Shown piece after piece: positions 55,939 to 58,915 of a DNA stretch of 64,000 nt; position 1 is the stretch's first letter; each line of letters opens with the position of its first letter. The translations under genes and the position numbers were made by a program. The notes below the pieces were generated by a model. That model made no database searches, had not been told where the DNA came from, and saw nothing but the letters and a program-made list of their open reading frames with translations. Source of the DNA: a virus (taxonomy: Duplodnaviria > Heunggongvirae > Uroviricota > Caudoviricetes); the IMG/VR virus record IMGVR_UViG_2698536476_000008; one strand, given 5' to 3'.

Positions 55939-58915
55939 TATTTAGCTCCTTTGCCACACCTAATAACAGTTCCAGCAATCCGTCACCATTCATCAGTGAT
56001 GCGGCAGCGGCCTCTTTGTCATGATACAACTGAAGAGCCATAGAGAATACTTCCGTTGCTGACGTTTTGGAAATAGTCGGTGATTTCTGCCGAATTTTCC
56101 CGGTGTTACTTACTGAGGCTGGCGGGTATACCTTCGCCATATAAATATTACTCAATCGAGATCTGAAGCACCATTCAGGCTTGCCACGCCCACCGATATT
56201 GACGAAAGATGGCTTATCCCCTTCAACATTGGACTTCAGGAATGACCGGGCTTTCTCTAACAAACCAGGGTTACTGTACTCAAGATGATGACCCAGCTCG
56301 TGCCACAGTGCACTTGCATTTTCATCGTTCAAATTGACAGCAACAACACCATTAAGATTTGCATATGCCCTTCCCTGGTGGTGAACTACCTTTGATAAGG
56401 TCGATATTTTCCCGCCGGTCAGGCGATAAATATCAGCAAGTTCCTTGCGCAGGTCTATCCCACCATTCTGTCCAGCGCGGACTTCTTCCACTTCTTCTGT
56501 GATAAAAGAGTCGGCCCACTCAAGAGCTTTTTCTTCAGATACGGATGAGTTTGCGATCGCACTGTTCATGGCAGATAACACTTTCTCGTGGACCGAACCC
56601 ATACTTCGCTGATTCATTTGCCAGCGTATCTGCGGGTTATATGAGAATCGCTTAAGTAGTTGGTCAAGCTGCTCAAGTTCTTCTTCACTGACATACTTTT
56701 TAGCCTCACCAATAATGCCAGGGAGAATATTGCCGTTAGGATTAAACGCTCGCGAAAGGAAGAGTTTCAGCGCCCCCATGCCCTCCGATGCTTCAATATC
56801 ACCAATAACCCGGTTAACAATGGCCGCACTCTTCGGATTAGCATCCGCCAACGCTCTGGCTACGATTTGCAGGGACGATACGACCTCACGCTGCATATCA
56901 GTCCTGATCTCATCAATAAACTCTGGCGTTATGCCGTGCTCTTTAAGAATATCCCGGCCTTCCGCCGTTACCCCATCGATATCACCGACATGTTTATTAA
57001 CACGACTTTGCAATGCCTTAAATGCCTTCAGAATTCCACGGGCATCATCCGCTTTACTAACGGCCTTCCTGAATGCTGGCAAGAAGTCTGAGTTAACCTC
57101 ATTTTGTCGATCGGCCCACTGAATGGAGGCTTCTTTCATCTCGTCCAGAGTCAGATCAACCAACGCGGTATGGTCTGTGAATATGAGCGACAACCTCTGA
57201 ACCATTTCTGCCAATGGTGATGCCGAATGCGCCGCGCTAAGGAATGCTTTCACCCTGGTTGGGCGAATGGAAAACCAGTCAATAGCTGGTGGCATATCTC
57301 CGTTTTTTATCGCCTGCGCTATCTCGTCAAAGCCATCGCGCCCAAGGGAGGATGCGTGATTTAACAAGCCGCGAAGTAACGAATTGCTGATACCGAATAA
57401 TCGGCACCATTTTTTCACGTCGGCAACAGGCATTCGAACAAAATGCGCAAGCACTTGTACAAGCTGTTCATCCTGGGGATCTGTGCGGGAAAGCAGCCTG
57501 ATCAGATGAATAATGTCTTTGATGCCGGATGCCCGATGTAATAGCAAACTGGTATACGGAGCAACACCGTTGTAACTACCGCCGGAAACGGACTCGAAAA
57601 GACCGCCGGATATCCCTTGCATGCCTTCGTTTTCCAGTTCCTGAGACACCTGGCGAAGGATATCCTGTAACGACACATCGCCGCCGCCAAACATATCCCC
57701 CAGCGCCTGGCCCTGGTGCTGTAACTCATCATTGATACGTTGAGCCATCAACTTAAAGGCGGTGGCCATACGCTTCGCGCTACGGTTATTCGCGACGATG
57801 AACAACGCGAGTGCTTTCACTTCCGGGGCCGTTTCGCTGAACATATCCCCCTGAGCAATAACATCGGTAATATGCTGGCCTGACTCCTTCGATTGCCTTA
57901 CCAGGTCTACCGCATCTTTCAATGCCGCCAGCGCCTTTTTATCGAGGCTATCCGCTGTCTCAATGCCATCAACAATAGTTGTCACAGCCTGCTTGTGCGC
58001 TTCTCCTGATAAAGCCTGCATCTGGACAAAATCATTGGCTGCCGCATTAAGCGCCGTCAGAACATTACGCATATCCGGATCAGGTTCTTCTGCAACCATC
58101 CTTACCAGGCGCGCATCCTTATATGCCTTGGCAAAGATCGCGTTTTGTATACGGTCTACAAGTTGCCGTGTTGGTCGCCCATCTTCAGTTACAAGGCCAG
58201 CCGCCTGTGTGGCACCAACTTGCGTCATAAATCCGCGAATAAACGCGTCATTACTGCGGCTAAGCAGATCTCCACTTTCTGACGGGTTAAACAACGCCAT
58301 CATCGCCGGTGTTATGCTGTCGGCATCAACAAAAGCCTTTTCACTGGCTGCCATTTCCTGGAGATCAGAAATATTTGAGTCCTTGGCAAACTGAACACGG
58401 TCAACCTTCGTTAACCGGCGGCGCACCAGTACCGGAGCCGTCATTGATTCAACCTTTTCAGGCCGTATGCCGAATTCGGTCGCATGTTCAATCAGGTACT
58501 CCCGATACCGATCCGCATTACCGTCCTGATAGGCTTTAATGATCCCCATGGTCCGCCCATTACCTGACTCAACGGCATTGTCCTCACCAATTATTGGCGC
58601 ACCATGGCTGGATAAACCGGAATCAGTAAGCTGAGCTGGCCGCAAATCTTTGGATATCTGGTTAACCTGAAGAAGGCTGGATGCGCGGGTCCGGTCGCGC
58701 GGCTGAAGTTCCTGGGGATAGTCAGGATTAATTTTCCCATCCAGAGTATTGGATACCAAAAGAGCTGAGGCATCGACGATATCAAACGCTGTTTTTACCT
58801 CGTCTCCCTTCGCTGTCACCACATACGAAACCCGCCCATAATCGGGCAGGTTCTTTAGCAGCTCGATCAGCGTTTCTATGCTGGTGGCCATTACCACCTG
58901 ATCGCTTAAGCTCAT
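55928..58915 (-). CDS. DdrB-position large virion-associated protein (995 aa) with HExxH (HELGH) motif near C-terminus
   Basis: ORF track; motif at 56288-56302 on minus strand. Confidence 0.5.
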   Translation of the reverse strand: MSLSDQVVMATSIETLIELLKNLPDYGRVSYVVTAKGDEVKTAFDIVDASALLVSNTLDGKINPDYPQELQPRDRTRASSLLQVNQISKDLRPAQLTDSGLSSHGAPIIGEDNAVESGNGRTMGIIKAYQDGNADRYREYLIEHATEFGIRPEKVESMTAPVLVRRRLTKVDRVQFAKDSNISDLQEMAASEKAFVDADSITPAMMALFNPSESGDLLSRSNDAFIRGFMTQVGATQAAGLVTEDGRPTRQLVDRIQNAIFAKAYKDARLVRMVAEEPDPDMRNVLTALNAAANDFVQMQALSGEAHKQAVTTIVDGIETADSLDKKALAALKDAVDLVRQSKESGQHITDVIAQGDMFSETAPEVKALALFIVANNRSAKRMATAFKLMAQRINDELQHQGQALGDMFGGGDVSLQDILRQVSQELENEGMQGISGGLFESVSGGSYNGVAPYTSLLLHRASGIKDIIHLIRLLSRTDPQDEQLVQVLAHFVRMPVADVKKWCRLFGISNSLLRGLLNHASSLGRDGFDEIAQAIKNGDMPPAIDWFSIRPTRVKAFLSAAHSASPLAEMVQRLSLIFTDHTALVDLTLDEMKEASIQWADRQNEVNSDFLPAFRKAVSKADDARGILKAFKALQSRVNKHVGDIDGVTAEGRDILKEHGITPEFIDEIRTDMQREVVSSLQIVARALADANPKSAAIVNRVIGDIEASEGMGALKLFLSRAFNPNGNILPGIIGEAKKYVSEEELEQLDQLLKRFSYNPQIRWQMNQRSMGSVHEKVLSAMNSAIANSSVSEEKALEWADSFITEEVEEVRAGQNGGIDLRKELADIYRLTGGKISTLSKVVHHQGRAYANLNGVVAVNLNDENASALWHELGHHLEYSNPGLLEKARSFLKSNVEGDKPSFVNIGGRGKPEWCFRSRLSNIYMAKVYPPASVSNTGKIRQKSPTISKTSATEVFSMALQLYHDKEAAAASLMNGDGLLELLLGVAKELNNAD

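Follow-up and report, generated by a model that had tools for sequence, protein, structure and literature searches.

A predicted zincin-type metallopeptidase module at the C-terminus of DdrB from a P1-like phage

DdrB is one of six proteins packed in the head of phage P1 that shield the incoming DNA from restriction. Here, we analysed the ddrB gene of IMG/VR virus record IMGVR_UViG_2698536476_000008 (Caudoviricetes), a stretch of 64,000 nucleotides referred to below as the window. The gene (55928..58915, minus strand, from the open reading frame (ORF) listing and translation) encodes a polyvalent virion protein of 995 residues and 108.8 kDa that belongs to the darA operon. Its C-terminal part, modelled over residues 775 to 995 (55931..56593, minus strand) and with a conserved catalytic core at residues ~820 to 965, is very probably a genuine zincin-fold metallopeptidase module. 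This conserved and apparently catalytically competent zinc peptidase provides a concrete handle on DdrB function. We further propose, with moderate confidence, that the domain is an active gluzincin that cleaves DdrB itself within a linker.

The ddrB gene of the window is 98.5% identical in nucleotides to that of P1 (NC_005856) across the gene, and 97.8 to 99.0% identical to ddrB from 19 P1-type records. The two proteins share 982 of 995 residues (98.7% identity), and none of the 13 amino acid changes affects a conserved position of the C-terminal domain. As in P1, ddrB is flanked by ddrA and hxr. Near-identity and position in the darA operon together establish that the 995-residue ORF is the orthologue of P1 DdrB, and the window is that of a P1-like phage (Punavirus). 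The assignment of the Dar products as packaged virion antirestriction proteins, made in the initial annotation of this sequence, agrees with the literature.

The prediction of a metallopeptidase in DdrB is already known, as it was annotated in 2004 and described in 2017. The view that an embedded protease had not been described for dar products was thus mistaken, since four sources precede it. The reference P1 record describes ddrB as "unknown protein function; possible metallopeptidase", and the record of phage JL22 calls its product "putative metallopeptidase". Lenart et al. (2013) cited the DdrB family as suspected zincin, and Iyer, Burroughs, Anand, de Souza and Aravind (2017, J Bacteriol, PMC5512222) assigned a C-terminal metallopeptidase (MPTase) domain to P1 DdrB. 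The additions of the present analysis are the candidate residues E955 and Y930, an affinity of the lethal factor or Pro-Pro endopeptidase (PPEP) type, an architecture of two modules plus a linker, and the finding that a family of at least 403 clusters lacks a curated profile.

Conservation of the HExxH motif

The initial annotation had pointed to a zincin-type HExxH motif at 56288 to 56302 in the 995-residue product. The minus-strand codons at 56288..56302 (cac-gag-ctg-ggt-cat) read exactly H-E-L-G-H, and the peptide quoted, ALWHELGHHLEYSNPGLLEKARSF, is found in the DdrB translation. HELGH corresponds to residues 872 to 876, on the predicted active-site helix formed by residues 868 to 881, and is the sole HExxH in the protein. 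As a bare pattern, it is not beyond chance and is weak evidence alone: composition predicts 0.026 occurrences in DdrB, 2.6% of shuffled sequences have one, and the six-frame translation of the window contains 6. What makes HELGH more than a chance occurrence is its conservation in homologues together with the confident fold of the region.

A word-index search for homologues with the C-terminal 250 residues gave 8 matches, from close relatives only, and an exhaustive HMMER search was needed. Using residues 760 to 995 as the query, it returned 403 cluster representatives at E ≤ 0.001. The best 156 of the homologous regions were aligned with DdrB using MAFFT, giving 157 rows. Of the 157 rows, 155 retain H872, E873 and H876. 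Other positions are conserved to a similar extent, including E879 and Y925 (155 each), R849 and Y930 (153 each), E914 (152) and K928 (141), as well as E955 (154), which is preceded by a threonine or serine at position 954 in 155 rows. The rows that deviate at conserved positions are mostly fragments. In a diverse alignment of 31 sequences, where the other members share 24 to 42% identity with DdrB, nine residues never vary: R849, H872, E873, H876, E879, E914, Y925, Y930 and E955. Conservation of the motif in homologues and its location in a globular region, the two points on which the original proposal had been made to depend, both turned out in its favour.

Predicted fold and structural relatives

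A single-sequence AlphaFold prediction of residues 746 to 995 was unusable (predicted local distance difference test (pLDDT) score 37.6) and was replaced by a model based on the 31-sequence alignment. The latter covers residues 775 to 995 with a mean pLDDT of 91.8, a predicted template modelling score (pTM) of 0.89 and no segment below 50. The model comprises a helix (822 to 832), three short strands (842 to 845, 851 to 852 and 857 to 860) and the helix that carries HELGH and E879 (868 to 881). It continues with a further helix (883 to 896) and a strand-rich insert harboring E914, Y925 and Y930. The C-terminal part is made of a helix (956 to 962) that directly follows T954-E955, and of two more helices. 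As modelled, the domain has the zincin core that Iyer et al. (2017) defined, and a long insert precedes its glutamate helix. The features that characterize the zincin superfamily, namely a HExxH motif on an α-helix and a core of helix, three-stranded sheet, active-site helix and further helix, are all present in the model. The structure prediction, which had been suggested along with the motif, thus yielded a confident zincin-type, gluzincin-like domain.

Structural comparison of the model gave matches to Certhrax, an ADP-ribosyltransferase toxin (score 7.0), MtfA (6.9), anthrax lethal factor (6.9, 6.4 and 6.2) and edema factor (6.5), then to ERAP1, M32 carboxypeptidases, Wss1 and LTA4 hydrolase. 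Thermolysin, botulinum light chain, IrrE/PprI and Spartan were found at lower ranks. In a library of viral structures, the domain was found repeatedly in large phage proteins (221 to 1207 residues), with E-values down to 8.8e-11. On the basis of the model, the C-terminal module of DdrB appears structurally nearest to the M34 peptidases, lethal factor and the Pro-Pro endopeptidases. The M34 or ATLF-like enzymes (lethal factor, PPEP-2 and PPEP-3) share with it HExxH followed by an acidic residue at +3, a tyrosine, a glutamate in an ExxA/S helix and a C-terminal helix. In terms of structure, the similarity of fold and the same order of HExxH, tyrosine and glutamate are those of an M34 member. In terms of sequence, no ATLF Pfam match was found, identity to the DdrB domain is 13 to 15%, and neither a PDB sequence-profile search (E about 1) nor hhalign against lethal factor (P 0.0068 to 0.016) gave a significant match. 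The distance from the tyrosine to the glutamate also differs, with 25 residues in DdrB versus 7 in lethal factor. Finally, M34 enzymes are secreted toxins or endopeptidases, whereas DdrB is virion cargo. MtfA (Mlc titration factor A, peptidase M90), an enterobacterial cytoplasmic protein that binds a regulator, is 11% identical to the domain, and DdrB has no Pfam M90 match.

The model also reproduces the helix, three strands, HExxH helix and later glutamate helix of the polyvalent-protein MPTases of Iyer et al. (2017). The object is the same, as these authors named the P1 DdrB MPTase and placed it in a phage-type polyvalent group with DdrB-ParB. The DdrB clade differs from their description in several respects, however. 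It is not matched by the Pfam model MPTase-PolyVal that derives from their work, it has R849 at the strand-2 position instead of the histidine of the common phage clade, it carries a glutamate rather than an aspartate at +3 after HExxH, and it has an insert of ~75 residues between the HExxH helix and the glutamate helix.

Predicted active-site residues

The catalytic domain of lethal factor from pXO1 was aligned with the family profile using hhalign. The global alignment, in which the sequence match is not significant (P 0.016), superposes HELGH on lethal factor H686-E687-H690 and Y930 on Y728. It also places T954-E955 (ATEVFSMALQ) onto A734-E735 (EAEFFAEAFR), and the C-terminal helices align too. 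In an unbiased local alignment, the best match was exactly the glutamate-helix segment, with E955 on E735 (P 0.0068). E955-V-F-S agrees with the gluzincin glutamate-helix motif (E,H)xx(A,F,T,S,G), as quoted in a study of the plasmid protein ArdC (PMC7213743).

From these correspondences we infer that H872 and H876 are zinc ligands and that E873 acts as the general base, activating the catalytic water. E955, at the start of helix 956 to 962 within TEVxS (T954-E955, 56051..56056, minus strand), is the likely third zinc ligand, in an arrangement that would be as in M34 peptidases. Y930 belongs to Y925-x-x-K928-x-Y930 (family consensus PYVGKVY; 56126..56143, minus strand) and is the probable tyrosine that stabilizes the transition state. 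E879 (56279..56281, minus strand) lies three residues after the second histidine (HExxHxxE) and probably is a second-shell acid orienting a histidine ligand. At the same spacing, lethal factor has an aspartate (HEFGHAVD), and Iyer et al. (2017) mentioned that position +3 is acidic in a phage-type clade. R849 (56369..56371, minus strand) is located on the strand preceding the active-site helix. E914 (56174..56176, minus strand) might instead be a residue that contacts the metal or the substrate.

The downstream glutamate that had been associated with HExxH in the initial annotation, E887 of LLEK, is not a plausible metal ligand. Its column in the 157 rows contains 39 alanines, 36 glutamates, 17 glutamines and 15 lysines, and it was rejected because it is not conserved. 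The HExxH half of that proposal stands, as a conserved motif in a folded domain, and E955 and Y930, instead of E887, are the residues of interest for catalysis.

Domain architecture and proposed self-processing

Alignment of 10 full-length DdrB-like proteins revealed two conserved modules, at residues ~20 to 430 and ~820 to 995. The first holds a DdrB-like domain of the ParB/sulfiredoxin superfamily at residues 36 to 167 (58415..58810, minus strand; Pfam PF18763 ddrB-ParB, E 1.9e-39), which is the only Pfam match in DdrB. Between the modules lies an indel-rich, poorly conserved linker (residues ~441 to 780; 56576..57595, minus strand), where identity to DdrB is at most 0.28 per 20-residue block and gaps reach 0.52. 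DdrB thus joins a zincin to a ParB domain within one phage protein, and polyvalent-protein MPTases are defined as zincins of multidomain phage or conjugative-element proteins that also carry other domains related to conflict. In 78 of the 156 homologues the zincin module lies at the C-terminus, in 75 it is internal, and only 16 have a ParB domain as well. Its partners include InPase, Phage_Mu_F, LRAT/NlpC-P60, DnaJ and ddrB-ParB.

With reference to Lobocka 2004 and Walker & Walker 1981, Iyer et al. (2017) stated that DdrB is processed to a 76-kDa form (~700 residues) before packaging. These authors proposed that the MPTase domain performs the autoproteolysis of DdrB and that the N-terminal ParB fragment is packaged. 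A 76-kDa N-terminal product would end at about residue 695, inside the linker, and would leave a 33-kDa piece with the whole peptidase. We thus favor a mechanism in which DdrB, made of an N-terminal ParB-like module, a variable linker and a C-terminal gluzincin-type zinc metallopeptidase, would be cut by its own domain in the linker, at about residue 695, before the head is assembled or in the course of its assembly. The ParB-bearing part of ~76 kDa would then enter the P1 head and be injected with the DNA. This reading is supported by the two conserved modules with a variable linker, by the position of the 76-kDa end and by the location of DdrB in the virion head, and we also count in its favor the separation of the ParB and zincin ORFs in a distant P1-like element, described below.

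Several points weigh against self-processing. A C-terminal fragment starting at about residue 300 would also be 76 kDa and is equally possible by mass. P1 has a dedicated prohead protease, Pro, with the capsid protein and DarA as substrates, and this enzyme could also process DdrB. Gonzales et al. (2022) detected DdrB in virions with 39 peptides, and this coverage of 59.5%, reported without peptide positions, is compatible with either presence or absence of the C-terminal domain in virions. The sequence alignment to lethal factor alone is not statistically significant, no Pfam zincin model matches the domain, and we found no experiment on DdrB peptidase activity in the searchable literature. 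Finally, in ArdC of plasmid R388, the nearest analogue studied by experiment, the metalloprotease-dead variant E229A retained its full antirestriction activity, and no substrate could be identified (PMC7213743).

ArdC is close to DdrB in several ways, being a mobile-element antirestriction protein that enters with DNA and has a C-terminal gluzincin with HExxH and a glutamate-helix ligand; it acts against type I HsdRMS (PMC7213743). It differs by its N-terminal ArdC-N domain, which binds single-stranded DNA, in place of the ParB-like domain of DdrB, and its protease was found dispensable by test, whereas that of DdrB is a prediction. By analogy with the E229A variant, the zincin fold of DdrB might be kept mainly as a binding or assembly module, for capsid targeting or for protein or DNA-protein recognition, with catalysis being unimportant for the Dar phenotype. 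The N4 virion RNA polymerase offers a further parallel, as it needs its MPTase region for encapsidation yet is packaged unprocessed (Iyer et al., 2017). The near-invariance of both histidines, the intervening glutamate, E955 and Y930 in ~155 sequences at 24 to 42% identity is, on the other hand, typical of an active enzyme, and we regard a mainly binding or assembly role as the least probable of the alternatives considered here.

Pro might be the protease that cuts DdrB, and the zincin of DdrB might act in trans in the assembling head as a maturation protease that trims or activates DarB, Ulx and DdrA. The Dar proteins are incorporated in an ordered manner, DdrB is linked to the incorporation of DarB, and the known cleavage of the capsid protein and DarA by Pro fits such a scheme. 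So do two genomic arrangements, the split ParB and zincin ORFs of one P1-like element and a zincin homologue of Xanthomonas phage Rb1 that is flanked by an internal head protein and by a giant SNF2 ATPase similar to DarB. The literature consulted reports no processing of DarB or Ulx, however, and no direct evidence points to a substrate in trans. Candidate [LIV]xE sites occur in the linker of DdrB; as simple pattern matches, they were given no weight here. The Pro site of the capsid protein (SVAAEM) was sought to derive a Pro pattern, and the capsid gene lies outside the window. We consider maturation in trans to be very doubtful.

The split arrangement is found in the distant P1-like element GCA_000307305.1 (DF158889.1, 3272..9054), which has a syntenic lydB-hdf-darA-ddrA-like operon. 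DdrB is represented there by two ORFs, a ParB protein of 425 residues and a standalone zincin of 257 residues with all catalytic residues intact. Because the two frames differ, the second ORF begins with TTG and ~300 residues are missing, this may be either a true split or gene decay, and it was rejected as proof of action in trans.

Alternatively, the zincin could be an injected effector, either within full-length DdrB or as a separate fragment, that cleaves a host protein such as a component of type I restriction-modification or of another defence. DdrB is a head protein needed with DarB and Ulx for protection against EcoB and EcoK, and the peptide coverage of Gonzales et al. (2022) would allow for a C-terminal part packaged in virions. 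Lethal factor and the PPEPs, which act in trans as toxins or secreted endopeptidases, are among the nearest solved structures. In half of the family members the module sits in a protein that has no ParB domain, and it also occurs on its own. Iyer et al. (2017) named such a role as possible for polyvalent-protein MPTases. Against an effector role, it has no known substrate, the packaged form is reported as 76 kDa and would be devoid of the peptidase according to the prediction of Iyer et al. (2017), Gonzales et al. (2022) described DdrB as an aid to the addition of DarB to the capsid and not as an enzyme, and the protease activity of ArdC is dispensable for antirestriction (PMC7213743). Taken together, we find an injected effector unlikely. 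Its most specific form, in which the DdrB zincin would be an M34-like endopeptidase delivered from the head to cleave a host protein involved in defence, for instance one from BREX or from a type I restriction-modification system, is more speculative and less likely again. If it were true, proteolysis would be a direct arm of Dar antirestriction, and the at least 403 cluster representatives without a Pfam model would be widespread injected phage anti-defence proteases.

Family membership and distribution

The DdrB domain is a zincin by fold and motif and belongs to none of the curated sequence families tested. Searches of Pfam at E ≤ 10 with residues 601 to 995, 775 to 995 and 801 to 995 matched no family, and neither MPTase-PolyVal nor any other Pfam zincin model matched DdrB above the gathering threshold. 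The 31 members of the diverse alignment gave scattered sub-threshold Pfam matches to M91, reprolysin-like, Zincin_1, M10 and M78. The matches in PHROGs were to families without functional annotation, with only weak hints of "metallo-protease" or "minor head protein". Since there is no curated profile, family members are annotated as "hypothetical" in most genomes. Sequenced phages with the domain include the P1 group, 69 Vibrio phages, one Xanthomonas phage and one Cronobacter phage.

In Xanthomonas phage Rb1 (PQ569993.1, 992..12501), the DdrB-type zincin protein has 637 residues and is annotated as "M12B reprolysin-like". Its gene is flanked by those of a 1221-residue "internal head protein" and of an SNF2-type ATPase that exceeds 2200 residues and resembles DarB. 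In this unrelated phage, the neighborhood thus has the appearance of a cluster of Dar-like cargo genes.

Genes surrounding ddrB

The gene order lydA-lydB-hdf-darA-ddrA-ddrB-hxr is identical in the window and in P1. The late-operon genes upstream of ddrB (58928..62569, minus strand) are lydA (62240-62569), lydB (61800-62243), hdf (61211-61822), darA (59290-61209) and ddrA (58928-59293), all on the minus strand and with ORFs of the same size as in P1. DarA matches both Pfam DarA_N and DarA_C. Hdf (203 residues) and DarA both match DarA_N (59290..61822, minus strand), with E-values of 1.5e-21 and 1.6e-42, respectively. This common match means that the two neighboring proteins, of head-size and antirestriction function, have paralogous N-terminal domains. 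The ORF opposite ddrB (57963..58394, plus strand) is the counterpart of P1 iddB ("internal to ddrB", unknown function) and encodes 143 residues, versus 399 nucleotides in the P1 annotation.

The window also encodes a homologue of IsaA (53966..54811, plus strand), a protein of 281 residues annotated as "unknown function" in P1. It has a C-terminal Tad2-like (Thoeris anti-defence 2-like) domain (PF11195, residues 197 to 280, E 2.5e-22) and might be an anti-Thoeris sponge, encoded ~1 kb away from where the dar operon for antirestriction ends. Reference P1 has an IS1 element interrupting isaA-isaB, which the phage of the window lacks (53900..55650). Over this region, Salmonella phage SJ46 is 98.9% identical along the full length and P1 covers only 58%. 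The ssb-hxr interval is variable among P1-like phages, and in JL22 it contains an ompD porin gene.

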